A stretch of DNA of 64,000 nucleotides from an uncultured Gammaproteobacteria bacterium (GTDB taxonomy: Bacteria; Patescibacteriota; Microgenomatia; UBA10105; UBA927). The notes beneath the pieces were generated by a model. The model made no database searches. It was not told the DNA's origin and saw nothing but the letters and a program-made list of their open reading frames with translations. Made by a program: the position numbers and the translations under genes. Shown here piece by piece: positions 4,657-40,728 of this stretch; positions within the stretch are counted from its first letter, which is position 1; every line of letters begins with the position of its first letter. The stretch is from the NCBI GenBank assembly GCA_964515005.1, contig CAZEVT010000002.1:28968-92967 (forward strand), given 5' to 3'.

Positions 4657-5679
4657 CTATTTCTTCAGCGCCAAGCCCACGGCGACGCAAAAATTGGGTC
4701 CTTCCGCAGTCAAGACGTTAAACCGGGCGTCACGCGCAATGCCCACCCACGGGTTACCGAGTTGCACTTCTATCCCCAAGGTCTGGGCCAGATAGGTGAC
4801 CATCCCCGGAAGCCTCGCCGTTCCTCCGGAAAGGAGGACTGCCTGGACATGGTCATCTTTGTATTTTTCCTGATAAAAGGCAAGGGCCCTTTTGATCTCA
4901 TTGACCACCGTGTCCATAATGGGCTTCACCGCGGTGACGATCTTCCCCTCGAGTTTATCCGCCTGGAGTCCATACGTTTTTTTGTATTCCTCGGCCTGCG
5001 TTTCGTTAAAGTCCAATCCCTGGGCAAGGGCCCGCGTCAGGGCATCGCCTCCTGCCGAAAGCGACCGGGTAAATGCAAGAATGCCGTTTCGCACAATGGC
5101 CAAATCCGTCGTCTGGGCCCCCAAAGATACGATCATCATGCTTTTTATGCTTGGGGCAGACCGTGCAATTGCCCGCGAGGTTGCGATGATTTCTGTTTCC
5201 GCCGCGGCCGCCGTAAGCTCCGAAAGCTCCAAGATCGCAAGATATTTGTCCAAAAGCGCCTTCGGGGCGCCTACCAAGAGCACCTCCATTTTGTTTGTCC
5301 CGGTTTCGGCAGAGGTGCGAAGAATCGTATAGTCAACATTTACCTGATCCAAAGGGAGAGGAATATACTGTTCGGCCTCCCACTTAATGGCGGAGGCTAA
5401 CTCCCGGTCGGAAAGCGCGGGCACTTCGATAACCCGCGTAAACACTTTGGATTCGGGGAGCGCGATTTGAATATTCCTGCTTTTGGCCCCCGTGTCCTTC
5501 AGAAGTTTTTTTATTGCGGCAGCAACCGCCTGATTGTCCGCAGGCAGTGTGCTCGTTAATGCCTTGGGCGGCGTTGGGGTGCTTCCTGCCGCCATAAGAC
5601 CAACGCGCGGGCCATCCCATGCAAGCTCAATGAGCTTTATGGTGTGCGATCCGATATCCAGGCCAAGTGATAGGTTCAT
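4657..5679 (-). CDS. pilM: Type IV pilus assembly protein PilM (actin-like ATPase fold)
   Basis: N-terminus MNLSLGLDIGSHTIKLIEL and overall FtsA/PilM-like architecture, 340 aa. Confidence 0.85.
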   Translation of the reverse strand: MNLSLGLDIGSHTIKLIELAWDGPRVGLMAAGSTPTPPKALTSTLPADNQAVAAAIKKLLKDTGAKSRNIQIALPESKVFTRVIEVPALSDRELASAIKWEAEQYIPLPLDQVNVDYTILRTSAETGTNKMEVLLVGAPKALLDKYLAILELSELTAAAAETEIIATSRAIARSAPSIKSMMIVSLGAQTTDLAIVRNGILAFTRSLSAGGDALTRALAQGLDFNETQAEEYKKTYGLQADKLEGKIVTAVKPIMDTVVNEIKRALAFYQEKYKDDHVQAVLLSGGTARLPGMVTYLAQTLGIEVQLGNPWVGIARDARFNVLTAEGPNFCVAVGLALKK

Positions 5680-5691
5680 GTGGGCAGAATA

Positions 5692-6549
5692 TTACTCATG
5701 GTTAATTGATCCCTCGCTATATATGGCATTGTCAAAAATCGTTGCGGGCGCCGCATGTTGCTGATACACAAAAATCTTCCTGTTGACGCCGCTTTCTGTA
5801 GTTCCTACTGACTCGATGATCCTTCCCTGTACCGGCAGGGTCGAGAGTGGAATGACGGCAAAAAGCGCCGCGTTATAGACCGGTCTAACCCGCAGTGCAA
5901 TAAGCACATCTACCGCAGGATTGATGGTGGGTTCGAGAGTGGAAAACTGCATCGTCTGTCTATAGGCAGTTCCGGTCCCTGCCCCGCACCCGCCCACCGT
6001 CGCCGTCGGCACCCCAAATTTATTTACCCCCTGGCGCGCCGGGTCCGGATCATACGCTGCTTTGGCCACGCGGTAAGAATTGTCGCTCGTCTCGCGGTAG
6101 AGGACGGTCGCAACAATGGCGGCCATTGGCGACTCCTGGCTCCAGCAAACATCAATGGAGGGCGAAGTATAAAAGGGGGTCGCATCGTCAACCGTTCCGT
6201 CGGCATTGTGAGGAGCAAGCCAAATAGTTTCGGTTTCTTCCCTGGGCGTCTTTTGCTGATACACGAGGGGCTGAGACGCCTCACCGCTTATCGATGCTAC
6301 TGAAACCGCATAGGTAAGACCTAATTTCTCGTCCACCAGCAGGGCGCTTGCAACCCCACTTCGCAGCGCTTCCTCGACGCCTGCTTCAGCCGCTGAAAAG
6401 GCCCTCGCCGATTCTTCAATATTCCGCGTGACGGAAATATTGGTCGTGCCGCGGGAAATAAGCGACAAGCCTACCGTTGTTGCAATCGTAAGAACGAGTA
6501 GTGCAATGAGTGCCGCTTGCCCGGATTGAGAGCTACGAACTCTACGCAT
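5692..6549 (-). CDS. PilX-like minor pilin / pilus-associated protein
   Basis: N-terminus SGQAALIALLVLTIATTVGLSLISRG resembles the PilX_N hydrophobic segment. Lies directly upstream of pilM, and the rest is a secreted domain. Confidence 0.4.
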   Translation of the reverse strand: MRRVRSSQSGQAALIALLVLTIATTVGLSLISRGTTNISVTRNIEESARAFSAAEAGVEEALRSGVASALLVDEKLGLTYAVSVASISGEASQPLVYQQKTPREETETIWLAPHNADGTVDDATPFYTSPSIDVCWSQESPMAAIVATVLYRETSDNSYRVAKAAYDPDPARQGVNKFGVPTATVGGCGAGTGTAYRQTMQFSTLEPTINPAVDVLIALRVRPVYNAALFAVIPLSTLPVQGRIIESVGTTESGVNRKIFVYQQHAAPATIFDNAIYSEGSINHE

Positions 6550-20497: not shown

Positions 20498-23400
20498 ATG
20501 GCCAAAATTTCTGACAAATATTCAGGAAGCGACATCGTTGTTTTGGAAGGACTTGAGCCCGTCCGGAAGCGCCCGGCCATGTACATCGGCACAACCGCCC
20601 TTGCCGGCGTCCACCACTGCTTAAACGAAATTATCGACAACTCCATCGACGAAGCTTTAGCCGGATACGCCAAAAACGTCTGGGTGACGATCCACAAAGA
20701 CGACAGCGTAACCGTTATTGACGACGGCCGCGGCATTCCGATTGATAAAAATCCGAAATATAAGGTCTCGGCTCTCGAGCTCGTCATGACCAAGCTCCAC
20801 GCAGGCGGCAAATTTGAGGGCAAAGCATACAAAGTCTCCGGAGGCTTGCACGGGGTTGGTGCATCAGTCGTCAATGCGCTTTCCAGTGCCCTCAAGGTCG
20901 AAGTGCACCGCGAGGGAGGGGCATTCGTTCAGGAATATAAGAGAGGCAAACCGTTGGGACCCATCAAGAGGGTGGGGAAGGCAAAGGACACCGGCACGAC
21001 CGTTGTCTTTTTGCCCGACACCGAGATATTTAAAGAAGGAATTGCACTCAACTTTGAAATGGTCAAAAAACAGGTCCGCGACCGGGCCTATCTTATTGCC
21101 CGCCTCGCGTTTCATCTTACTGACGAGCGAAGCGGCGAGGCGGCCCACTACTATTTTGAAGGCGGCATCACGTCACTGGTGAAAGCATTAAATAGAAATA
21201 AAGTCGTCGTCCACACTCCCATTTCAATAACGAGATCCGCAGAAGATGGCAGCATGAACGTCGAAGTGGCAATCCAGTACAACGACGGATTTTCCGAAAT
21301 CGTCGAATCGTACGTCAACGTGATTGCAACGGCCGAGGGGGGCACACACCTCACGGGCTTTCGTATGGCCTTGACGCGCGCCGTTAACGACTACGGCAAG
21401 AAAATAGGCGCGTTTAAGGCAGACTCCGACGCCATAACAGGCGAGGATACCCGCGAAGGGTTGACTGCCATCGTCTATGTGAAAATGCCTTCCCAATATC
21501 TGCAATTTGAGGGGCAAACTAAGGGCAAACTCGGTAACGCCGAGGTCCAGCCGTTTGTCCAGTCAGCAGTCAAAGAGGGGCTCGATACCTACTTTGAAGA
21601 AAACCCCGCAGAGGGACGAAAGATTTTAGAAAAAGTCTACCTCGCGGCAAGGGCGAGGCTCGCGGCCAAAGCCGCCAAAGACGCCGTCATTCGAAAAGGC
21701 GCGCTTGAAGGCGCAAGCCTTCCCGGCAAGCTCGCCGACTGTCAGGAAAAAGATCCGAGTGTCTCCGAACTTTTCATCGTCGAGGGAGATTCCGCAGGCG
21801 GATGTTTTTCCGCTGATACAAAAGTTGCGCTCACGGATGGACGAAATTTGGCATTCAAGGATCTGATCAAAGAATACGATTCGGGCAGACAGAATTACTG
21901 CTACACCATCCAAAAAAATGGTGCCGTGGGTGTTGCCCCAATACAAAATCCGAGGATCACCAATAAACATACAACCGTCATCAAAATTATTCTGGATAGC
22001 GACGAAGAAATCACGTGTACTCCTGACCATCTTTTCATGCTTCGGGACGGCTCATATAAAGAAGCACACCATCTGACCCCTGCAGATTCTTTGATGCCTT
22101 TGAGGCGCCAATTGTCTCATGTCGGCAAGTGGATTACCATCGAAGGCTATGAATTGGTGTTTGATCCAGCACTCAACCGATGGCTCTTCACTCATGTACT
22201 GGCAGATGAGTACAATCTCCAGCGCGGCGTATATAAACAAGAGGACGGGAACCACCGCCATCATATCGACTTTAACAAACAAAACAACAATCCCGATAAC
22301 ATTACGAGGATTTCAAAGGATGATCATCTTGCCCTCCACAGGAGTATTCTTGAAAAAACTATTCATAGACCCGATGTCAAACAAAAAGTCGCCGCCCTCC
22401 ATAAAACCGCCGCGTTTCGTCAAAAAATAAGACTGGCAATGACCCAACCCCGTATGCGCAAGCTTTTGAGTGCTCGTGCTAAAAAACAATGGCAAGACCC
22501 TACATATAAAACGTATATGACTCAAAAATTTCTCGATTTCTATTCGAACAATAAAGAATATCAGGAAAAAAACAATGCTCTTTTAGATAAAGAACAAAAG
22601 AAATATTGGGGTGATACACAGCACAGACATCTTCAGGCTGATCGCGTGCAGACATTCTTTGTGAACCATCCGGAACGCAAAGAACAACTTCGCGCATTGG
22701 CCAACAATCAGTGGTCAGACGAATCGCTGCGCACATGGCGCCGTCAAAAGACAAAAGAGCAGTGGACGAACGCATTCCGATTACAACGAAAGGACTCATA
22801 TAATAAGATGTATCTTCGAAAAGCGCTTGCAACACTCCATTCCATCTATGAAGCAAAAGGGGAAATAAGTCCAAGTGAGTATCAACACATACGATTAACT
22901 TCACGGGACAAAAGCCTTATTCGATACGAAACAATCCGCCGGAGATTTTTCAACGATGATGAGCATCTATTTGAGCAGGCCATTATGAACTATAATCACA
23001 AAATTAGAAAAATAATTTCTCTTGAGAAACGAATGGACGTGTATGACATAGAGGTCCCCGGAACACATAATTTTGCCCTGGCTTCCGGAGTGTTTGTCCA
23101 CAACAGCGCCAAACAGGGCCGCGACCGCAAATTCCAGGCTATCTTGCCGCTTCGGGGGAAAATCCTCAATACCGAGCGGGCACGGCTTGATAAGATCATC
23201 GAATTTGAAGAACTCAAGGCGCTCGTTATAGCGCTCGGCATGGGCATTGCCGATAGCTTAAATCCCGAGAAGCTTCGCTATCACCGCGTGATCATCATGA
23301 CGGATGCCGACGTCGACGGCGAACACATCATGACGCTACTTTTGACCTTCTTCTATCGTCATTTACCCTATATCGTTGAGAAAGGGCACCTCTACATCGC

Positions 23401-23722
23401 CCAGCCGCCCCTCTATAAAATCACCTGGGCCAAGGAATCCCATTACGCCTACTCCGATGACGAGCGGGACACGATCACCAAAGAACAGGGCAAATCCATG
23501 AAGACCGCCCCCACCATTCAACGGTACAAAGGCCTCGGAGAAATGAACCCCGACCAGCTCTGGGAAACCACCATGAATCCGGTCAACCGCGTCATGCGGC
23601 AGGTAACGATTGTGGACGCGGCCGCGGCAGACAACGTGTTTGCCATGCTCATGGGGGACGAGGTGCCGCCGAGAAAGAGATTTATTCAGACCCATGCAAA
23701 AAATGCGACATTGGATATATAA
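20498..23722 (+). CDS. gyrB: DNA gyrase subunit B, interrupted in frame by a 434-aa intein
   Basis: GHKL ATPase motifs at the N-terminus. TOPRIM EGDSAGG, then CFSADTKVAL...VFVHN, then SAKQGRDRKF. The exteins total 640 aa, a normal GyrB length. Confidence 0.95.
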   Translation: MAKISDKYSGSDIVVLEGLEPVRKRPAMYIGTTALAGVHHCLNEIIDNSIDEALAGYAKNVWVTIHKDDSVTVIDDGRGIPIDKNPKYKVSALELVMTKLHAGGKFEGKAYKVSGGLHGVGASVVNALSSALKVEVHREGGAFVQEYKRGKPLGPIKRVGKAKDTGTTVVFLPDTEIFKEGIALNFEMVKKQVRDRAYLIARLAFHLTDERSGEAAHYYFEGGITSLVKALNRNKVVVHTPISITRSAEDGSMNVEVAIQYNDGFSEIVESYVNVIATAEGGTHLTGFRMALTRAVNDYGKKIGAFKADSDAITGEDTREGLTAIVYVKMPSQYLQFEGQTKGKLGNAEVQPFVQSAVKEGLDTYFEENPAEGRKILEKVYLAARARLAAKAAKDAVIRKGALEGASLPGKLADCQEKDPSVSELFIVEGDSAGGCFSADTKVALTDGRNLAFKDLIKEYDSGRQNYCYTIQKNGAVGVAPIQNPRITNKHTTVIKIILDSDEEITCTPDHLFMLRDGSYKEAHHLTPADSLMPLRRQLSHVGKWITIEGYELVFDPALNRWLFTHVLADEYNLQRGVYKQEDGNHRHHIDFNKQNNNPDNITRISKDDHLALHRSILEKTIHRPDVKQKVAALHKTAAFRQKIRLAMTQPRMRKLLSARAKKQWQDPTYKTYMTQKFLDFYSNNKEYQEKNNALLDKEQKKYWGDTQHRHLQADRVQTFFVNHPERKEQLRALANNQWSDESLRTWRRQKTKEQWTNAFRLQRKDSYNKMYLRKALATLHSIYEAKGEISPSEYQHIRLTSRDKSLIRYETIRRRFFNDDEHLFEQAIMNYNHKIRKIISLEKRMDVYDIEVPGTHNFALASGVFVHNSAKQGRDRKFQAILPLRGKILNTERARLDKIIEFEELKALVIALGMGIADSLNPEKLRYHRVIIMTDADVDGEHIMTLLLTFFYRHLPYIVEKGHLYIAQPPLYKITWAKESHYAYSDDERDTITKEQGKSMKTAPTIQRYKGLGEMNPDQLWETTMNPVNRVMRQVTIVDAAAADNVFAMLMGDEVPPRKRFIQTHAKNATLDI
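21803..23104 (+). mobile_element. Intein (Hint domain plus HNH-type homing endonuclease) in gyrB
   Basis: Cys1 follows GG. Block B is ITCTPDH, and the C-terminus VFVHN|S gives HN plus Ser+1. Internal HNH motif NHRHHIDFNKQNNNPDNITRISKDDHLALH. In-frame length 1302 nt. Confidence 0.8.
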
Positions 23723-31756: not shown

Positions 31757-32726
31757 CGGAATCAACAATCAGAGAAACAAAATCGGCAAACGTCAGTCCG
31801 ACGGCGCGGTACGAAAGCGTCATGCCATACTCCACATCATCAGAGAGTCCCGGATTGCTATTTGCTTCAAGAATATACACTGTCCCACCCCGCATTCGTA
31901 CGTCCAGACGCATATAGTCTTGAAATGAAAGCTCGACAAATGCGCGAGTTGCGATATCAACAAGAGCCTCCGCAAGCTCCGGCGAAAGGACGGCCAAGGC
32001 CATATCGGACGACTGGTAATCCGCGGCAGATGCGTCCCAGCGGCTTTCGTAGGTCAGAAGTGCATCTGTCCCTTTCGTCTTGTAGACGACTTCGGCCGCA
32101 GGCAGCACCCATGGAGAGCCGTTTTTTTCAATGACCGTCACCTGAAACTCACGCCCGTCCAAAAATTCCTCAGCAATCATGGGCTCGCGAAGCGTCTCAA
32201 TCCGCTCTTTGATCCGGGCTGTCAGTTCCTCTTTGTTTTTTACCACTGCATCATGGGTTAAGCCCACGCTGCTGTGCTCAAGCGGGGGCTTGACGATGAC
32301 TGGATATACAAAATCATCGCGAATATCCTCATCTCCTGTCGTAAATTCCTGCCAAAGGGCAATCGGCAACCCCCGAAGGTCAAGCGCTTTTTTCATGCTG
32401 CGCTTGTCTGAAGTTTCCATAAAATTTTCCCGCGTGGCACCGGTCACCGGAATGCCGATTTTTCCCATGGCCGTAAGGGCGCGGTCCGAAAGGGGTAAAT
32501 CCGGACCGGTCCATTCGATAATGTTGAAGATGCAATCGGCCTGAATATTTTCAATCGTCGGCGCGATTTTGTCCTCGGCAACAGGAACGAGAGTCACCGT
32601 GTGACCATGAGACTCTAGGGCGTTTTGCACTTCGCGGGCTGATTCGGCGGTATCATCCTCCGACTCCATATATTTGGTGCCTGAAGCTCTCTTGGTTGGC
32701 AGATTATAGACGACAGCGACGTTCAT
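31731..32726 (-). CDS. ddl: D-alanine--D-alanine ligase (ATP-grasp)
   Basis: ATP-grasp motifs and a C-terminal MRLDVRM...VYILEANSNPGLS, which is Ddl-like. Confidence 0.7.
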   Translation of the reverse strand: MNVAVVYNLPTKRASGTKYMESEDDTAESAREVQNALESHGHTVTLVPVAEDKIAPTIENIQADCIFNIIEWTGPDLPLSDRALTAMGKIGIPVTGATRENFMETSDKRSMKKALDLRGLPIALWQEFTTGDEDIRDDFVYPVIVKPPLEHSSVGLTHDAVVKNKEELTARIKERIETLREPMIAEEFLDGREFQVTVIEKNGSPWVLPAAEVVYKTKGTDALLTYESRWDASAADYQSSDMALAVLSPELAEALVDIATRAFVELSFQDYMRLDVRMRGGTVYILEANSNPGLSDDVEYGMTLSYRAVGLTFADFVSLIVDSAMRRAAKA

Positions 32727-33670
32727 TTTTTGTGGTGGTATTTGGCGTGAATTTCCTTCAGCTGGGGATTGGTAATATGGGTATAAATCTGCGTGGTTGA
32801 GACGTTTTTGTACCCCAGCATCTCCTGGATTGCCCGAAGGTCCGCGCCACCTGAAAGGAGGTCGGTGGCGAAGCTATGCCGCAGGCCATGGGGCGTAATT
32901 TTTATAGGCAAACGCGCTTTCTTGGCATATTTCTCAACCAATCGCTGGACGCTTCTGGGGGTGAGGCGAAACGATTCACCGTTTTTGTCATCCGCGTCTG
33001 GCTTGCGGCCGGCATAGCGGATAAACATGGCAACCGAGGTATCATCGCGATTTTTGAGATACCGCTCAATCCAGGTAACGGCGCTGTCTGATAAAAAGAC
33101 CACCCGGGCGCGCCTGCCTTTCCCTATAACGCCAAATTCTTTCCGCTCAAAATTAATCTGATCGCGGTTTAATTTCGTCAACTCCGACACGCGAAGGCCG
33201 GTTGAGAAAAGCATCTCCAATATCGCTTTATCCCGAAGTCCCTCGGGGCGGCTTATCTCCGGCATGTTGAGGAGCCGGTCTATCTGTTCGCGCTCCAGAA
33301 ATTTAATCGACCGGCTTTCTGCCTTCGGCAGATCAATTTTTTCCGGTGCAATCACTGCTATGTCCCGCTTGAGAAGATATTTAAGAAAGCTTCGGAGCGC
33401 AATAAGATGGTAATTCTGGGTCACGCGCTTCAGGCTGATTCCTTGCGGGTCAACGTACCGCGAAAGAAAGAGCCGGTATTCGCGTATAGATTCTGCTGTA
33501 ATATCTTTTGGAGATTTCACACCTTTCACGGCAGGGGAGGGGGGGGAGCCCGACAGGAAGCCCAAAAATCGATGCAAATAGTGTTCGTAGTTCCTGATGG
33601 TCAGTTGCGAAACATTTCGTTCAATTTCAAGGTATTCTAAGAACTCTTTTAAAAGTGTATTCAGGTCCAT
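32723..33670 (-). CDS. xerC: Tyrosine recombinase XerC/XerD-like
   Basis: Catalytic region HGLRHSFATDLL...LGYKNVSTTQIYTHI with the catalytic Tyr. N-terminal core-binding domain present. Confidence 0.8.
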   Translation of the reverse strand: MDLNTLLKEFLEYLEIERNVSQLTIRNYEHYLHRFLGFLSGSPPSPAVKGVKSPKDITAESIREYRLFLSRYVDPQGISLKRVTQNYHLIALRSFLKYLLKRDIAVIAPEKIDLPKAESRSIKFLEREQIDRLLNMPEISRPEGLRDKAILEMLFSTGLRVSELTKLNRDQINFERKEFGVIGKGRRARVVFLSDSAVTWIERYLKNRDDTSVAMFIRYAGRKPDADDKNGESFRLTPRSVQRLVEKYAKKARLPIKITPHGLRHSFATDLLSGGADLRAIQEMLGYKNVSTTQIYTHITNPQLKEIHAKYHHKK

Positions 33671-33681
33671 AATCTAAGAAT

Positions 33682-34650
33682 GTGCGACATCCCATGAAAA
33701 GTCAAGTATCTGCTATACTTAACTCCATGAAGCTCGGCATCAAGGTGGCCCCAGGGAACGCGTGGAAACGCGATATTGAATCCACCCACCCGTCCATGGT
33801 CGAAATTTGGTATAACGCAAGTAAACCAGCCCTCTATGACGAGCTATTTGCGCATCTTGCCGGAAAACCCATCGACGTCAGTTTGCACTATTGGGGCGCC
33901 CTTCCAAGCAATTTGTTAACGAACATCTCATTCCCGGACCCACAGATTTCAAAGCCGTCTCTTGCGCTTATGCACGGGACAATCGATGTAGCCTCCCAGC
34001 ACGGCTGCGCATACGTCAATGTCCACCCGGATTTATATTCCTTGCTCCACGTCAACTTTGATACCCTGGACATCCGCGTCGCATCAGAACCTTCTGATTT
34101 CGCATTGGCGCGTAAGACCTACATAAGTGAAATACAAAAGCTTGACGCGTACGCCAAATCAAAAAGCGTTCTTTTGACGGTTGAGACGGTCCCAATGCGA
34201 GATTCGCTGACCTGGAGTCCCGACCGCGACCGAACCCGGGTCATAGACATCCACCAGATGCCGATTGACGTTCAGATTGATCTGGCGGCCCAAGGGATAT
34301 CCATTGCCAACGACTTCTGTCACACCGCCTGCAACCTAATCTCCGAAGACCGTGCGAAGATTTGGGAATTCCTTAAACGAACAACGGAGACTCTGGCGCC
34401 TCAAACCCGCCTTATCCATCTTGGATATCTCGTCCCGCCGTATAACGGCATGGATTTCCATGACTCCTTGGATAATCCGGTTTTGGATACCGATCGCGCA
34501 ATTCCAAACACCAATGAAATGATTGAACTATTAAAACTATTTGGCAATCGCGATGATGTCTGGGTACTGGTTGAACCAAAAGAAGACCACATGAAAAATT
34601 ATGTTTTGGCAAGGGGAATCCTTCAAAAAGCCCGCGTTTTGACCAAATAA
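33682..34650 (+). CDS. Hypothetical protein (possibly TIM-barrel sugar-phosphate isomerase/epimerase-like)
   Basis: 322 aa with alternating beta-strand and helix hydrophobic pattern (VEIWYNA, VSLHYWG, VNVHP, LLTVETVP, IHLGYL). Weak resemblance only. Confidence 0.3.
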   Translation: MRHPMKSQVSAILNSMKLGIKVAPGNAWKRDIESTHPSMVEIWYNASKPALYDELFAHLAGKPIDVSLHYWGALPSNLLTNISFPDPQISKPSLALMHGTIDVASQHGCAYVNVHPDLYSLLHVNFDTLDIRVASEPSDFALARKTYISEIQKLDAYAKSKSVLLTVETVPMRDSLTWSPDRDRTRVIDIHQMPIDVQIDLAAQGISIANDFCHTACNLISEDRAKIWEFLKRTTETLAPQTRLIHLGYLVPPYNGMDFHDSLDNPVLDTDRAIPNTNEMIELLKLFGNRDDVWVLVEPKEDHMKNYVLARGILQKARVLTK

Positions 34651-34741
34651 CATTACCCACAACTTAGCCTCGGATGGGAGCCCCTGTATTGACCTAGGAC
34701 GGCTTACATATTTTTAGATGATACTTTGGTCGTCTGGAAAA

Positions 34742-35278
34742 CTACTTACGATGAAATCTTTGGAAAGTATCCCGCGAAAATCGAAGTTTTTCCTCCTGCC
34801 ATGAGTTGTATCCGGTGCCGCGCAAAAACATGTGAAGCATTAAATTTTTCTCCTCGTAAAATGGATATGGAACATTGCCAATCCAAATAACACGGTCGTC
34901 ATTGAGAAAAATTCTTACACACGAAGGATCCGTTGTGCCGCATTCTATGATGAAACGCCCATCCCGTGTGCGGATATCAGGATGTAATCCATCAAACTCA
35001 GATTCAAAAAGAACGTAGGATTGTCCTTGGTGTATCAACCACCGTTTTCCAAGCTTTTTGAGCGCCATATGGCCTTTTTCCTGCGGTCCTAAGCCTTCGG
35101 TGACAGCGATCGTATCCTGAATCTCGTGATAGGCTTCGACCGAAGCGATTACGGATTTTTCATAACGTACTGCGCCGTTGTCTATGGCAATCGCAAGCTC
35201 ATCAAGCACATCCCACGACGTGGCCGCCGGAAATCCGGAATAAAAAATATTTTTGAGTTCTTCGGAAGTCGGATTCAT
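34742..35278 (-). CDS. Hypothetical protein
   Basis: 178 aa, no recognisable motifs. Overlaps the stop of the downstream integrase by 4 nt. Confidence 0.35.
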   Translation of the reverse strand: MNPTSEELKNIFYSGFPAATSWDVLDELAIAIDNGAVRYEKSVIASVEAYHEIQDTIAVTEGLGPQEKGHMALKKLGKRWLIHQGQSYVLFESEFDGLHPDIRTRDGRFIIECGTTDPSCVRIFLNDDRVIWIGNVPYPFYEEKNLMLHMFLRGTGYNSWQEEKLRFSRDTFQRFHRK

Positions 35279-36291
35279 CGCACATCCTTTAGCGGGTGGA
35301 ACTTATGATGCGTTTCCTCTGCATATTGGTCTGATGTATGGACATATCGCGTCGTCGTATCCAGCGATTCATGACCCAAAAGAATCTGAATCGCCGCGGG
35401 ATTGGCGCCTCCTTCCGCCAAATACGTCGCAAATCCATGGCGCAATGTATGGGCGCTTATAGGTATATTGATATGGAGGTCCTGCCGGTATTTTTTGATG
35501 CGCTCCTGTAAATAGTTTGTTGATATGTGCTGTTTTATTGACGATAACCCGCGACCCCTGTACGGGATAAACAATGCAGGAATATGATCATGTCGAATGC
35601 GTATATATGCGCTCAGATGGTATTTGGCGCGTTCAGTTAGATACACAAAGCGTTCTTTTTTTCCTTTGCCCAAAATAAAAATTCTTCCCGTATCATCGAT
35701 CTGATCGCGTTTCAGATTGACAAGCTCGGAAATACGCATACCCGTCGCGATTAACAGTTCAAGCATGGCACGATTTCGCAGTCCCGCCCGCGAATCCTTT
35801 TCTAACCGACTCGGCGCTTCGATAATTCGTACTAATTCTTTGAGTTCTGCAATTTTCGGATGCGTGCGAATCGTTTTAACCAATTTGACCGCCTCAGGCG
35901 CCACCGGTACCTGAAAATCCATATCTATAAGGTACTTCAAATACGTTCGGACCACCGAAAGCATACGGTTCACGCTTGTAGATGCTAGCTCTTCGGAGTG
36001 CTTAAGCCGTTCTAGGGGCGTTACACGGTCTTGCGATACAAGATATGCTTTGTAATATGCAAGTTTTTTTTTGTCTAGCTGATCGAAAGGAAATCGGGAT
36101 TCAGATAAAAATTGCGCGAAGGTTAGCAGGTCGCGTTCATAGTTATAAACCGTTTCCTGTGAATACCGATTGGTTTGAAGAAAGAGGAGAAAGTCATCGA
36201 ATAATGGTAAGGAGGCTGAAACATCGATGGAACGAGATGAACCCGTCAGGGGAGTTGGAGAAATTGGTTCAGGCTTGTTAGTCGTGTTCAT
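35275..36291 (-). CDS. Tyrosine recombinase / phage-type integrase (second copy)
   Basis: HTLRHGFATYLAEGG...LLGHESLDTTTRYVHT with the R..HxxR..Y catalytic residues. About 25% of positions appear to match the first recombinase. Confidence 0.8.
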   Translation of the reverse strand: MNTTNKPEPISPTPLTGSSRSIDVSASLPLFDDFLLFLQTNRYSQETVYNYERDLLTFAQFLSESRFPFDQLDKKKLAYYKAYLVSQDRVTPLERLKHSEELASTSVNRMLSVVRTYLKYLIDMDFQVPVAPEAVKLVKTIRTHPKIAELKELVRIIEAPSRLEKDSRAGLRNRAMLELLIATGMRISELVNLKRDQIDDTGRIFILGKGKKERFVYLTERAKYHLSAYIRIRHDHIPALFIPYRGRGLSSIKQHISTNYLQERIKKYRQDLHINIPISAHTLRHGFATYLAEGGANPAAIQILLGHESLDTTTRYVHTSDQYAEETHHKFHPLKDVR

Positions 36292-36589
36292 ATCGAGTAT
36301 AAGGGATATTATACTCGATATTATATGAGACTATACCTGCTTGTCAATGCTCAACTACACCTCTACACAGCGATTAAAAATTAAGAGTGGCCCAAAAGAG
36401 AGGAAAACAGCCTCGGATAGCCACTCCCCGAGAATAGCGTGTTTTTCCGTTATATGTTATGTAGACGGTAAAGCGGGGCAAAACGAGGACAACGCTTACC
36501 CCCAAGACTCTTATCCTCTGCCGTCCTGGAAGACGTCGCATTTAGAGCATATCAATGCTCCAAACCATGAAAACTAGCCTCATCAGCAC

Positions 36590-36900
36590 TCTGCTTCATG
36601 GAGTAATAAAACGGCCTTTCGGGTTTCTTTAGCGCCTTGTTATGGTCCAAACCTCTATTTTCGACCTGCCCGCAACGCTTCGCGTAGCGAGGCGGGCGGG
36701 GGCTTTAGCGCGTACAAACAATCCAAACCACTAAAAATACGCACACATTGTGTACTCAAGCGAGTGGACCAGTGGCCCACGAGCGCAGGGGTGCACCGAG
36801 CTCCGCTCTGGTGCGCCCCAAGGGTGTGAAATGAGCCTAAGCGATTCCGTGAAAGAAATTATCCACACTGTTATAGGCTTATAAGACTTAAATGCATCAA
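36590..36900. other. GC-rich, highly structured non-coding region (candidate ncRNA or gene remnant)
   Basis: 670-bp gap without a convincing ORF. Contains long dyads such as cctgcccgc...gcgggcggg and ggtgcaccgagctccgctctggtgcgcc. Not matched to tmRNA, RNase P or SRP RNA by eye. Confidence 0.2.
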
Positions 36901-36958
36901 ACTATATCACCCTCTCCTACCTATTCACCCTACCCCACTCCTCTTCCCCGCCTCTACC

Positions 36959-37846
36959 TCACATATTTCCGCGCCAGTGCGTTGCGAGCATGGTAATTGC
37001 AAATACAATTGCAGACACCGAAACAAATTCAATGACTGTTTTTTTATAGAGCTTTTCCACCAGGTACTGCTGGCCCATGCCGACGGCGCTATAGAAAGAC
37101 GTCGTAAAAAGAAGCGCCTGCAGGGTCGTTTTGGTCGGCAAAAAGGAAAACACCCACGCAAGCTCAACTAAAAGAAGCGTAATTGCGATACTAATGCGGC
37201 GCGTGCGGACGGTCACGATAGGAGTAAGCTCCACCGCCCAGAGGGACTGGAATGCCAGGAAAAAACTCATCGCGCCAATGGCGAGAGTCGAAACGAGTGG
37301 ATTAAAGCGAAACGCAAGAATCGTCTGCGCGAGTAAAAAATACGTAACGAGCGTCAACAAAAACCCGACGGAATGGGCCGCGCGAAGAAGTGCAATCGTC
37401 CGGTCCGCCGCCACGTTATATATGTTTTCGGTAAGAATGAGGGCATACATGCCCACGCCGTAGAGGGCCGCGACCGGCAGTCTCGTGAGCCACCGGACCG
37501 GCAGAAGAAAATAAAAAAGCGCGACGGCTGCGGTAAACAGGGTCGGCAACGTCAGAAGGGTCACCCACTCTGCGCCGTGCAAATCCTCCCGAAGGACAAC
37601 CGCCGAGAGTCCGTAGGCAACCAGAGACAAGAAAAAGACCAGTGGATACCGAAGTTCCTGCGACACCAGCTGGGTCAAAAGAAGCCCAATGGTCAGGATA
37701 ATCGTCACGGCGACAAATTGTTGACGCTTCGTGAAGGTCACTCGCCTATCCCAGCGGATAAGCCTTTTTTTGATATTCCCGAACATACCGCTTATTGTAC
37801 GCCGTACTTCCTCCCTTGACAATTCTTGCCAATCCACTACACTCAT
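36959..37846 (-). CDS. Polytopic membrane protein of unknown function
   Basis: At least 8 hydrophobic helices in 295 aa. Confidence 0.45.
   Translation of the reverse strand: MSVVDWQELSREEVRRTISGMFGNIKKRLIRWDRRVTFTKRQQFVAVTIILTIGLLLTQLVSQELRYPLVFFLSLVAYGLSAVVLREDLHGAEWVTLLTLPTLFTAAVALFYFLLPVRWLTRLPVAALYGVGMYALILTENIYNVAADRTIALLRAAHSVGFLLTLVTYFLLAQTILAFRFNPLVSTLAIGAMSFFLAFQSLWAVELTPIVTVRTRRISIAITLLLVELAWVFSFLPTKTTLQALLFTTSFYSAVGMGQQYLVEKLYKKTVIEFVSVSAIVFAITMLATHWRGNM
37816..37843 (+). promoter_or_regulatory. Candidate sigma70 promoter giving a near-leaderless transcript
   Basis: TTGACA, a 16-nt spacer, then TACACT. The -10 element ends about 8 nt before the ATG at 37852. Confidence 0.3.
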
Positions 37847-39646: not shown

Positions 39647-40728
39647 CTATAGCCACGAGCGCTTAAGTTCAAGGAACCGGTTTTTCTTAATGGACGTACG
39701 AATATCTTCCATGAGGCGCTCCATAACATGGAGATTGTGGATCGTGGCTAAGCGGTACGAAAGGAGCTCTTTCACGCGAAACAGATGGTGGACGTAGGCC
39801 CGGGTGAAATGCACGCATGTGTAACAAGCGCATCCCCTTTCTATTGGCCCGAAATCCTTTGCAAACTTCGATTTAGTAATATCTATCTGCTTGTTTTTCA
39901 CATACAGCATCCCAACGCGTGCGAGTCTCGTAGGCTGTACGCAGTCAAACGTATCCATGCCGGCTTCAACGAGCGTGAAAATATCATCAATCTCCCCACT
40001 CCCAAAAGATGACGGGGTTTGTTTTGAGGAAGAAACGGTACGACCCACTCCAAAACTTTTGCCATTTCTTTTTTGCTTTCTCCCACTGACACGCCGCCAA
40101 TTGCCAATCCATCAAAATCCATGGAACCAATAAACTTGGCCGACTCCTGCCGTAAATCTTTGTACACACTCCCTTGAATTGAACCATACAGCGCCCCCTT
40201 TTTATGAGCTGCCAAACTGCGTTTTGCCCATCTATGGGTTCTGTCTAAAGATTGTCGTGCTTTTTCGTGCGTCACCGGATACGGTGTGCAATCGTCAAAT
40301 GCAATGTGGATATCCGCGCCTAACTCTTCCTGCCATTGCATACTTTTTTCCGGGGTAAACACATGCTTACTGCCATCCCAGTGGGATTTAAATTCCACTC
40401 CCTCATCCGTAATTTTTGCGCCCAAAGAAAATATCTGGAATCCTCCACTGTCGGTCATGAGCGGCCCGTTCCAGTTCATAAATTTGTGGAGTCCTCCTGC
40501 TTTCTTCACCACCGCGATCCCCGGCCGCAAATACATGTGATACGTGTTGACGAAATACAATTGAACACCAATGATGTTCAACTCTTCAGGTATGAGGCTT
40601 TTGACCGTCGCCTGCGTGCCGCACGGCACAAACGCCGGGGTCCCAATTGTGCCATGCGCCGTCCTTATCTTCCCTACTCGAGCGCGGGTATTTTTATCTT
40701 GATGAAGAACTTTAAATGCAAATGGCAT
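39647..40728 (-). pseudogene. tgt: Queuine tRNA-ribosyltransferase (tgt) split by a +/-1 frameshift
   Basis: ORF 39898..40728 carries the TGT N-terminus and core up to LPQNKPRHLLGVG. ORF 39647..40048, in another frame, carries DIFTLVEAGMDTFDCVQPTRLARVG and the CxCxxC zinc site. The frames switch near homopolymers at about 39990. Confidence 0.75.

Follow-up and report, generated by a model that had tools for sequence, protein, structure and literature searches.

The stretch of 64,000 nt analyzed here (hereafter the window) probably harbors two separate Xer-type recombination systems in a terminus-like region of a Patescibacteria genome resembling Gottesmanbacteria, in which the recombinase Int2 and a palindrome in front of its gene (site-2) would form a module of the XerS/difSL type and the full site belonging to a second recombinase, Int1 (site-1), would have been replaced. 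Site-2 is conserved together with Int2 across two phyla, and the pair most likely constitutes an undescribed one-recombinase system for chromosome separation.

Few systems that resolve chromosome dimers are understood in detail, namely XerCD, XerS, XerH, XerA and XerL. Our literature search yielded no description of site-2 and no dif site described for the candidate phyla radiation, and what is available for Dehalococcoides are weak computational predictions. For three genomes of this genus, Kono et al. (2011) predicted AT-rich dif sites, which differ from site-2 and count against its role as dif. A near-invariant 28-bp site in two phyla could serve as a replication-terminus marker for thousands of metagenome-assembled genomes and as a character informative about the kinship proposed between Patescibacteria and Chloroflexota. 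Moreover, Int2 and site-2 represent a small, testable recombinase-site pair, for which probably no second recombinase is needed. The features of the locus are compiled in Table 1; taxon labels of metagenome-assembled genomes are used as they stand in the database records, some of which are clearly wrong.

Table 1. Features of the recombinase locus (positions within the window).
Feature	Position	Strand	Description and basis
Int1	32723..33670	-	Second Xer-family recombinase, 315 aa; core in clade
Left half of site-1, ATGTCGCACATT	33679..33690	-	Overlaps -10 region of Int1 promoter
TIM-barrel-like protein, 322 aa	33682..34650	+	Weak AP_endonuc_2 match (Pfam, E = 2e-5, below cut-off)
Conserved non-coding block containing CCGAGGCT	34660..34703	-	Right edge of variable segment; 82–90% identity to Int2-less relatives
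Variable segment	~34712..36394	-	Promoter, site-2, Int2 and nuclease-fold gene; blastn homology break-points
Nuclease-fold protein, 178 aa	34742..35278	-	Restriction-endonuclease-like (PD-(D/E)xK) fold
Int2	35275..36291	-	Xer-family tyrosine recombinase, 338 aa; Pfam and NCBIfam matches
Site-2, ATCGAGTATAA-TATCCC-TTATACTCGAT	36292..36319	-	dif-like core site, 28 bp; perfect 11-6-11 palindrome
Sigma-70-type promoter, TTGACA-16-TATAAT	36320..36347	-	12/12 consensus positions; immediately upstream of site-2
Terminator-like hairpin and T-run (..CCGAGGCTGTTTTCC TCTCTTTTGG)	36392..36429	-	Terminator scan; left edge of variable segment
Three hairpin units, GTTTGGA-N10-GCKCTAAA	36703-36729, 36627-36653, 36540-36566	-	Direct-repeat family D1
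GNRA-like AACCCGAAAGG	36613-36625	-	Among the hairpin units (36540..36729)
Non-coding element core	36738..36911	-	Alignments; single-copy, clade-specific
Invariant CTTGAGTACACAATGTGTGCGTA	36738-36760	-	In element core
Covarying hairpins	36788-36819 and 36764-36780	-	In element core
CATTTCAC	36824-36833	-	In element core
Perfect DnaA box, TGTGGATAA	36859-36867	-	In element core
Extended -10-like GGTGATATAGTTTGAT	36896-36911	-	In element core
DUF5656 membrane protein gene	36959..37846	-	Pfam; synteny; constant upstream neighbor of non-coding element

Two families of Xer-type recombinases

Int1 and Int2 both match the Pfam family Phage_integrase (PF00589) and an N-terminal SAM-like domain (PF02899 for Int2). 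Their mutual identity amounts to 34% (BLASTP, E = 2e-45) and not to the approximately 25% estimated in a preliminary description of this DNA, which had also credited both proteins with the full R..HxxR..Y catalytic set. The R, HxxR and Y residues are indeed present in Int1 as well as in Int2, but the second histidine of the catalytic pocket is a tyrosine in Int1 of the source organism, which reads LGYKN where all other orthologs examined have LGHKN or LGHES. In Int2, R186, K209/K212, H281, R284, H307 and Y316 are invariant among 22 orthologs. The closest PDB match of Int2 is XerD (E = 6e-26), while Int1 best matches the XerA-type structure 4a8e from Pyrococcus (E = 1e-39), with XerD at 5e-38. 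Both proteins score below the NCBIfam equivalog cut-offs for XerC and XerD (TIGR02224 and TIGR02225; 335 and 330 bits), with 243 and 242 bits for Int1 and 189 for Int2 on either model.

Orthologs of Int2 sharing 60–100% identity occur in Patescibacteria and Dehalococcoidia (60–67% across the two groups). At ≥75% identity they fall into about 20 clusters compared with more than 100 for Int1, so that Int2 is far rarer in the clade; at ≥70% identity more than 120 clusters of Int1 were counted. Int1 is present in relatives both with and without Int2. On these matches and distributions, Int1 and Int2 are members of two separate conserved Xer-type families, which speaks against the decayed integrative element considered at the outset.

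As described earlier, two ORFs lie between the recombinase genes. The start of the nuclease-fold gene overlaps the stop of Int2 by 4 bases; this gene is limited to part of the Microgenomates, and its occurrence follows that of Int2 instead of that of the TIM-barrel gene. The latter, which does not belong to the recombinase module, is divergent from Int1, present in loci L085, L195, L198 and L201-L203, and absent from L086, L187 and L204. Its variable presence, together with the proximity of two recombinase genes within 3.6 kb, could be taken to mean that the recombinases invert or excise the 1.6-kb two-gene segment, or that the region is a decayed integrated element, but we regard this as highly improbable. 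No inverted or direct repeats above chance surround the segment, and none of either kind link 32.7 and 36.9 kb, where direct repeats had been envisaged; tRNA and att features are absent as well. The source organism is represented by two independent assemblies, which are collinear and 99.95–100% identical. All relatives share one gene order and orientation, and the association of the nuclease-fold gene with Int2 rather than with the TIM-barrel gene also argues against this model. Comparison with Fim, Hin or shufflon-type invertible segments led to rejection of these identities, given the lack of quality flanking inverted repeats and the single orientation in all assemblies and relatives.

A dif-like palindrome at the Int2 promoter

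The inverted repeat ATCGAGTATA-n8-TATACTCGAT noticed previously next to Int2 was recovered and extends to perfect 11-bp arms around a 6-bp spacer. In the window, site-2 directly adjoins the Int2 ATG and is the sole palindrome of its kind within 64 kb (0.02 expected from shuffles). Of 80 loci with Int2 orthologs, drawn from two phyla, 74 have it 5' of the gene, with the same orientation in 71 of the 74 and mostly at a distance of 15–200 bp; in six loci it lies 0.5–1.2 kb upstream, and in five of these six another ORF intervenes. The core GAGTATAAT shows no variation, the asymmetric spacer TAWYYC and the right arm are also conserved, and the inner part, ATAA-N6-TTA, matches Xer core sites. The near-identical arms within each site suggest that one recombinase per site suffices.

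Besides the consensus promoter immediately upstream, a second TATAAT is located inside the left arm of site-2. Many orthologous loci are arranged as TTGACA-N17-(-10)-site or as TTGACA-17 followed by the TATAAT of site-2 itself, i.e., site-2 lies at or within the Int2 promoter. The former suggestion of an att or regulatory region is supported insofar as the repeat resembles a recombinase site that also occupies a regulatory position. The invariant TATAAT could also be kept purely as a promoter element, which counts against the reading as dif.

Site-2 might even be an operator or promoter element only, used for Int2 autorepression or by another regulator, with Int2 acting elsewhere. We consider this rather unlikely, although in each lineage there is an overlap of site-2 with the promoter or the start of transcription, the 100% invariant part is exactly the core holding the -10 box, and there is a single copy per locus (within 64 kb in the window and ~13 kb per relative). 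The geometry with its inner motif fits Xer core sites, however, and the right arm is conserved as well, as is the asymmetric spacer; furthermore, gene orientation converges on site-2, and a free-standing site-1 occupies the same locus in relatives. Since that site-1 lies alone in non-coding DNA, ~1 kb from any gene start, such palindromes are here not simply operators. Regulatory and recombination roles are, in addition, mutually compatible.

Alternation of the two sites among relatives

At least 16 close relatives are devoid of Int2, the nuclease-fold gene and site-2 and instead feature ~290 bp with site-1, the 28-bp palindrome GTCGCACAA-TAATAC-TTTTGCGAC with an invariant spacer, at the same spot. 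Consequently, the variable segment is the one from promoter to nuclease-fold gene (~34712-36394) rather than the pair of genes flanked by the recombinases, and the presence/absence polymorphism anticipated among relatives was confirmed for this segment. Besides the window, at least five relatives (L083, L085, L086, L003 and L004) carry it. A free-standing site-1, never site-2, was present in every Int2-less relative whose contig covers the spot (≥16 loci), and a full site-1 was not found in any locus bearing site-2, including the window. The two locus types are interleaved in the Int1 and DUF5656 trees. In three loci with an Int1-Int2 operon, a site-1-like palindrome, GTTTCGCAAAC-TGTCAC-TTTTGCGAAAT, takes the place of site-2; judging from these loci, site and recombinase change together.

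What the window does contain is the left half of site-1 at the Int1 promoter, whose -35-like CTTGAC lies within 33691-33706. This half-site, GTCG(C/T)ACA(A/T)T, or a close variant is located upstream of Int1 in all relatives examined, with or without Int2. Int1 is probably the resident Xer of the clade, with site-1 as its cognate site, the full copy of which would have been replaced in the source lineage by the cassette of site-2, Int2 and nuclease-fold gene, leaving only the half in the Int1 promoter. The persistence of an intact Int1 in genomes that lost the full site-1 is left unexplained by this replacement model. Because close relatives have either site-1 or the Int2 cassette, the long-standing idea of Xer/dif module replacement becomes directly testable.

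An alternative option is that site-2, Int2 and the nuclease-fold gene form a small selfish or mobile module that spread horizontally and landed in, or displaced, the host dif (site-1), host chromosome maintenance not being its primary role. The patchy occurrence among close relatives with interleaved locus types, the exact replacement of site-1, the rarity of Int2 relative to Int1 and the attached nuclease-fold partner would all suit such a module, as would the 60–67% identity across phyla, which is unusually high for a recombinase, and the homing-endonuclease-like and other ORFs inserted beside site-2 in some loci. We nevertheless judge it unlikely: the variable segment showed no flanking att repeats, second site copy, or transfer, replication or mobility genes, 74 loci from widely differing lineages have the module where gene orientation switches, and only part of the Microgenomates has the nuclease-fold gene. 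The sharing between two phyla could also reflect common descent, as Patescibacteria have been placed next to Chloroflexota. A mobile element integrated at site-2, which might have demonstrated recombination in vivo, was not found in the loci examined.

Terminus-like position and proposed mechanism

Across 74 loci, ORFs to the left of site-2 are predominantly on the plus strand (269, against 48 on minus) and those to the right on the minus strand (223, against 79 on plus), and this convergent gene orientation resembles a replication terminus. GC skew changes from positive to negative across site-2 in 29 of 51 loci and in the reverse direction in 2 of 51. Two observations argue against the terminus reading: in the window and its clade the skew drops (from values of +0.06 to +0.10 down to about +0.03) while keeping its sign, and the switch in gene orientation in the window occurs at 31.7 kb, ~4.6 kb from site-2.

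The anatomy of the locus, its conservation, the mutually exclusive distribution of the two sites and the convergent gene orientation are seen directly in the sequences; binding, recombination, dimer resolution and autoregulation by Int2 are what we infer. Two Int2 dimers would bind the near-identical 11-bp arms, bring together the two site-2 copies of a dimeric chromosome and, by strand exchange over the asymmetric 6-bp spacer, resolve the dimer. Bound Int2 could at the same time repress its own gene, because the Int2 promoter has its transcription start or its -10 box within site-2.

Comparison with known Xer systems

The closest parallel to Int2 and site-2 is found in streptococci and lactococci, where difSL immediately upstream of xerS forms one module at the terminus, for which autoregulation as well as replacement of XerCD by the module has been proposed (Le Bourgeois et al., 2007, PMC1914069). 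Likewise, Int2 is a single Xer-group recombinase with a complete catalytic set, whose two-arm site is linked to its gene in 74 of 80 loci. Differences are that difSL has 31 bp and is atypical, whereas site-2 has 28 bp (11-6-11) with almost identical arms, and that Int2 reaches 84 bits on the XerS NCBIfam model (cut-off 267). Furthermore, replaced and replacing states coexist here in close relatives and the older Int1 is kept.

The dif sites of XerC/XerD in E. coli and B. subtilis also have 28 bp with 11-bp arms, a 6-bp center and the inner ATAA-N6-TTA, and share the terminus-like position, and XerD is the closest solved structure to Int2. The XerC arm in E. coli reads GGTGCGCATAA, which the arms of site-1 resemble (L016 variant, GGTTCGCATAA). 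Canonical xerC, xerD and dif are, however, dispersed, while site-2 adjoins its gene and has near-identical arms. Archaeal XerA likewise uses one recombinase on a palindromic 28-bp dif, and on the NCBIfam model for XerA, which has a cut-off of 220 bits, Int1 reaches 216, but the genomes considered here are bacterial; XerA is not known to be linked to its site. XerH/difH of Helicobacter and Campylobacter and XerL/dif of Legionella are single-recombinase dimer-resolution systems found by genome comparison. While difH lies near xerH, Int2 matches XerH weakly (E = 5e-12). In Legionella, the inverted repeats of dif are long and uninterrupted, and xerL is >400 kb away from this site (PMC9765430), unlike Int2, which adjoins its site. 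By description only, Int1 and Int2 can further be likened to the “Cand” subgroup, Xer-related simple recombinases of candidate phyla proposed as Xer stand-ins (Smyshlyaev et al., 2021, PMC8138268); in that study, proteins were classified without a cognate site.

A conserved non-coding element upstream of site-2

The region from 36392 to 36911 constitutes a conserved element in its own right that is specific to the clade, is either an RNA or cis-acting DNA, and occurs with or without Int2. The terminator-like hairpin at its border is kept in relatives of both types. In agreement with the preliminary description, 36320-36958 contains no conserved ORF, but the stretch is not GC-rich overall, with 0.43–0.51 GC in 500-base windows compared with 0.39–0.56 in the surrounding 18 kb; it just includes a few GC-rich hairpins.

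The length of the non-coding gap (0.65–1.5 kb), unusual for a compact genome, and the conserved perfect TTATCCACA box raise the question of a replication origin or DnaA-controlled element, to which the recombinase site would be incidental. DnaA boxes are enriched just upstream of site-2, with 18 perfect boxes within 250 bp in 78 loci as opposed to ~0–1 per bin elsewhere, and gyrB and gyrA are located 8–16 kb away. Each locus has, however, one perfect box and no cluster, neither dnaA nor dnaN is among the neighboring genes scanned, and gene orientation and skew converge on site-2, the opposite of an origin, which makes an origin very unlikely.

Returning to the dif-like reading, a wider version of it can be offered tentatively: Patescibacteria and Dehalococcoidia may share an undescribed single-recombinase system, Int2/site-2, with dif in the promoter of the recombinase gene itself, which in Gottesmanbacteria would compete with a second one-recombinase system, Int1/site-1, for the terminus locus by exchange of cassettes, with replacement in progress. 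The dif locus would then be embedded in a conserved non-coding element of 0.6–1.5 kb with DnaA box and repeated hairpins, perhaps a new large RNA or a terminus organizer.

The earlier suspicion of a structured RNA gains support insofar as conserved hairpins matching no Rfam family are present. Rfam returned no family at gathering score for 36320-36958, and up to E = 10 one chance microRNA match; 11 related loci likewise gave nothing at gathering score. The folding energy of the whole region is only weakly better than that of shuffles (z = -1.8 and -2.2). The main hairpin, by contrast, is conserved with compensatory changes in 6 of 13 pairs, and its covariation score exceeds all 500 shuffles and all slid controls. 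The 27-nt hairpin units number 0–5 per relative, most relatives having one or more; their offsets are fixed, and all lie on the minus strand. An integron was rejected as an identity, as IntI models gave 44–121 bits against cut-offs of 265–435 and the units, being present in Int2-less relatives too, are not cassette boundaries. On the minus strand, but not on the plus strand, the stems of these units contain G.U pairs.

Site-2 and the recombinase Int2

Directly upstream of Int2, one of the two Xer-type recombinases of the window, lies a 28-bp palindrome, site-2, wedged between the Int2 ATG and a promoter of consensus type, TTGACA-16-TATAAT. The organism is a Gottesmanbacteria-like member of the Patescibacteria, a label borne by the nearest named proteins. 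The inverted repeat noted here in the preliminary description, with 10-bp arms and an 8-nt spacer, is real, but its arms are longer and form a perfect 11-6-11 palindrome, the sole one of its kind in the 64 kb (shuffled sequences give 0.02). The site was found upstream of the Int2 orthologue in 74 of 80 loci, nearly always in the same orientation, with GAGTATAAT invariant, the right arm TTACACTC almost invariant and an asymmetric spacer conserved as TAWYYC. Across loci it either directly follows a promoter of the form TTGACA-N17-(-10) or supplies the -10 box itself through its internal TATAAT. Judged by sequence, this anatomy is that of a Xer core site, and Int2 with site-2 represents a candidate single-module Xer/dif system of putative function. 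The arrangement is shared with XerS/difSL, where the site also lies immediately upstream of the recombinase gene and autoregulation has been proposed (PMC1914069; PMC9765430). The dif sequences predicted for Dehalococcoides (Kono et al., 2011) are different and were rejected as an equivalent of site-2, and the 'Cand' Xer subgroup was defined with no site given (Smyshlyaev et al., 2021). Neither site-2 itself nor any dif site of Patescibacteria was found described in the literature searched.

Features of the recombinase locus in the window
Feature	Position	Strand	Remarks
DUF5656 membrane protein gene	36959-37846	-	upstream of the gap in gene order
Non-coding gap	between DUF5656 gene and Int2	-	667 bp
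Extended -10-like GGTGATATAGTTTGAT	non-coding element (36392-36911)	-	also in more distant Microgenomates
Perfect DnaA box	non-coding element	-	in invariant block
Two hairpins	non-coding element	-	covariation; compensatory changes in 7 pairs in total
Invariant 23-mer	non-coding element	-
Three hairpin units GTTTGGA-N10-GCKCTAAA	non-coding element	-
Terminator-like end	non-coding element	-
Site-2	36292-36319	-	ATCGAGTATAA-TATCCC-TTATACTCGAT
Int2 recombinase	35275-36291	-	Pfam Phage_integrase and SAM-like N-terminal domain
178-aa ORF	34742-35278	-	start overlaps Int2 stop
TIM-barrel-like ORF	33682-34650	+
Site-1 left half	33679-33690		upstream of Int1
Int1 recombinase	32723-33670	-	Pfam Phage_integrase and SAM-like N-terminal domain
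D-Ala-D-Ala-ligase-like gene		-	after Int1 in minus-strand order

Int1 and Int2 share 34% identity (E = 2e-45). Both score as resembling XerC, XerD and XerA, yet under all curated cut-offs, and their best solved-structure matches are XerD and a Pyrococcus XerA-type protein; an integron was ruled out by the recombinase model scores. Orthologues of Int2 are unusually conserved, with 60–67% identity both in many Patescibacteria lineages and in genomes that bear the label Dehalococcoidia or Chloroflexota, and form about 20 clusters at ≥75% identity, against more than 100 for Int1.

Several Int2 loci carry additional sequence. The orthologues of L060 and L079 have 457–459 aa instead of the usual ~312–340 aa, which could reflect an insertion or an intein. 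Extra ORFs are found between site-2 and Int2 in L052 (~5382-6001), L059 and L061; one such ORF resembles LAGLIDADG proteins (LAGFIDGEGY), and two other loci each have a related ORF of 162 aa. In L025 (4916-6001) and L066 (4814-6001), the full site-2 is followed by ~1.1 kb containing one ORF each, different between the two loci, and then by a left half-site, ACTGAGTATAAT, abutting the Int2 ATG. An element integrated at site-2 was considered here, and the arm arrangement is unlike a simple attP x attB integration; the two loci therefore look like cargo inserted next to site-2 with duplication of the promoter half.

A scan of viral contigs with site-2 gave 95 stretches, and none of the 80 loci returned carries an Int1 or Int2 homologue. 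The scan gives no evidence for elements exploiting site-2, and the inspected matches are a coding coincidence and an intergenic hairpin. The former, L162, is an RNA phage-like genome with ORFs of 508, 139 and 625 aa, the last with a YGDD polymerase motif; its match to the site-2 arms, ATTGAGTATAATTATAATTATACTCAAT, lies inside the 508-aa ORF, where it encodes IEYNYNYTQ. About 20 similar IMG/VR contigs have 4.3–4.9 kb, and site and flanks recur in many such contigs of ~4.5 kb. The latter, L099, is a tailed phage with the hairpin between probable terminase-like ORFs.

Alternation of site-2 and site-1 among relatives

The two-gene segment between the two recombinases had initially been considered as possibly invertible or excisable. 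Repeats were sought on either side of the recombinases and of the variable segment, with only short, chance-level matches, and L001 and L002, two further assemblies from this organism, show the same gene order and are 99.95–100% identical, so that this reading was abandoned. Variation of the locus among relatives, in turn, was borne out. In relatives gathered by a metagenome scan with a conserved gap motif and by Int1 homologues on long contigs, many close ones have DUF5656, the non-coding element, (the TIM-barrel gene) and Int1, and are devoid of Int2, the 178-aa gene and site-2. Homology to the window breaks at ~36394 and resumes at ~34712, and ~290 bp in place of this variable segment bear another 28-bp palindrome, site-1: (T/A)(A/T)GTCG(C/T)ACAA-TAATAC-TTTTGCGACGT, with the spacer invariant in at least 16 loci.

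Site-1 appears to pair with Int1 and site-2 with Int2. No locus was found with both full sites, the window itself being without a full site-1; all relatives examined, and the window too, have a site-1 left half or something close to it in front of Int1, in most cases overlapping the -10 region; and three loci with an Int1-Int2 operon have a site-1-like palindrome before the operon and no site-2. In two of them (L015 4485, L026 4485) it reads GTTTCGCAAAC-TGTCAC-TTTTGCGAAAT, in the third (L016 935) GGTTCGCATAA-CGGCAC-TTTTGCGAAAC, the left arm of which is one base off the E. coli XerC arm.

In neighbour-joining trees of Int1 and DUF5656, the two locus types are interleaved, and the exchange was therefore repeated or proceeded via allelic recombination. 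None of the best 120 Int2 clusters came from megabase contigs of the site-1 type, which suggests, without proving, that these genomes are without Int2 altogether. A 10-nt sequence, ATCCGAGGCT, borders the variable segment on either side; since it also flanks site-1 in relatives, it was rejected as a product of the segment's insertion.

Two further observations concern Int1. In the window's organism alone, a Tyr replaces the catalytic-pocket His (EMLGYKN), all other orthologues examined having LGHKN or LGHES, and relaxed selection once the full site-1 was lost could be a possible cause. In the site-1-type loci L204 (10994-11677) and L205 (14443-15120), IS200/IS605-type Y1 transposase genes are located beside or near Int1.

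Terminus-like position of site-2

For ORF counts, 74 loci were oriented with Int2 on the plus strand, and Int2 was left out on the right side. Left of site-2, 269 ORFs lie on plus and 48 on minus; to the right, 79 lie on plus and 223 on minus. With loci oriented in this way, GC skew turns from positive to negative across site-2 in 29 of 51 loci, with the reverse in two. In the window's clade it only decreases, the values of +0.06 to +0.10 giving way to roughly +0.03 with the sign unchanged, and gene orientation in the window switches at ~31.7 kb, 4.6 kb off site-2. A terminus position of site-2, as predicted from gene orientation and skew, is consequently good for the loci taken together and no more than suggestive in the window's genome.

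The non-coding element

Besides the cassette alternation, the part most worth following is the non-coding element at 36392-36911 within the gap. The widely conserved part of the gap is its last 30 bp only, i.e., site-2; the element itself is single-copy, specific to the Gottesmanbacteria-like clade and occurs with or without Int2. In site-1-type relatives, this non-coding stretch measures 1.0–1.5 kb and has site-1 within it. The covariation score of the hairpins is higher than in any of the 500 shuffles or the slid controls, and relatives have 0–5 of the GTTTGGA-N10-GCKCTAAA units, most of them at least one. Whole-region folding energy of the gap is no more than marginally better than that of shuffles. 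The structured RNA suspected earlier found no counterpart in Rfam, where nothing relevant was returned when the window was searched with gathering scores, the gap with E values up to 10, and 11 related loci as well. Over 78 loci, the 250 bp preceding site-2 show a strong enrichment of perfect DnaA boxes; both oriC and parS were ruled out for the element by box count and gene orientation. It could be an RNA or, alternatively, an element of the terminus that acts as DNA; if it is an RNA, a discrete minus-strand transcript would be expected from ~7 nt past TGATATAGT.

Neighboring genes

The gyrB gene (20498-23722, plus strand) codes for a protein of 1074 aa in which a Pfam intein-splicing domain separates GyrB from Toprim, GyrB of relatives having ~640 aa. 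The tRNA-guanine transglycosylase gene (39647-40728, minus strand) consists of two overlapping ORFs of 276 and 133 aa in different frames, a split also seen in the gene calls of two independent assemblies; in relatives it is a single gene of 388–431 aa. Further genes, placed from the L001/L002 gene calls at ~43.1–45.7 kb, ~7–9 kb off site-2, encode a MazE/PIN toxin-antitoxin pair, an AbiEii-like protein and a small sigma-70 region-4 protein.
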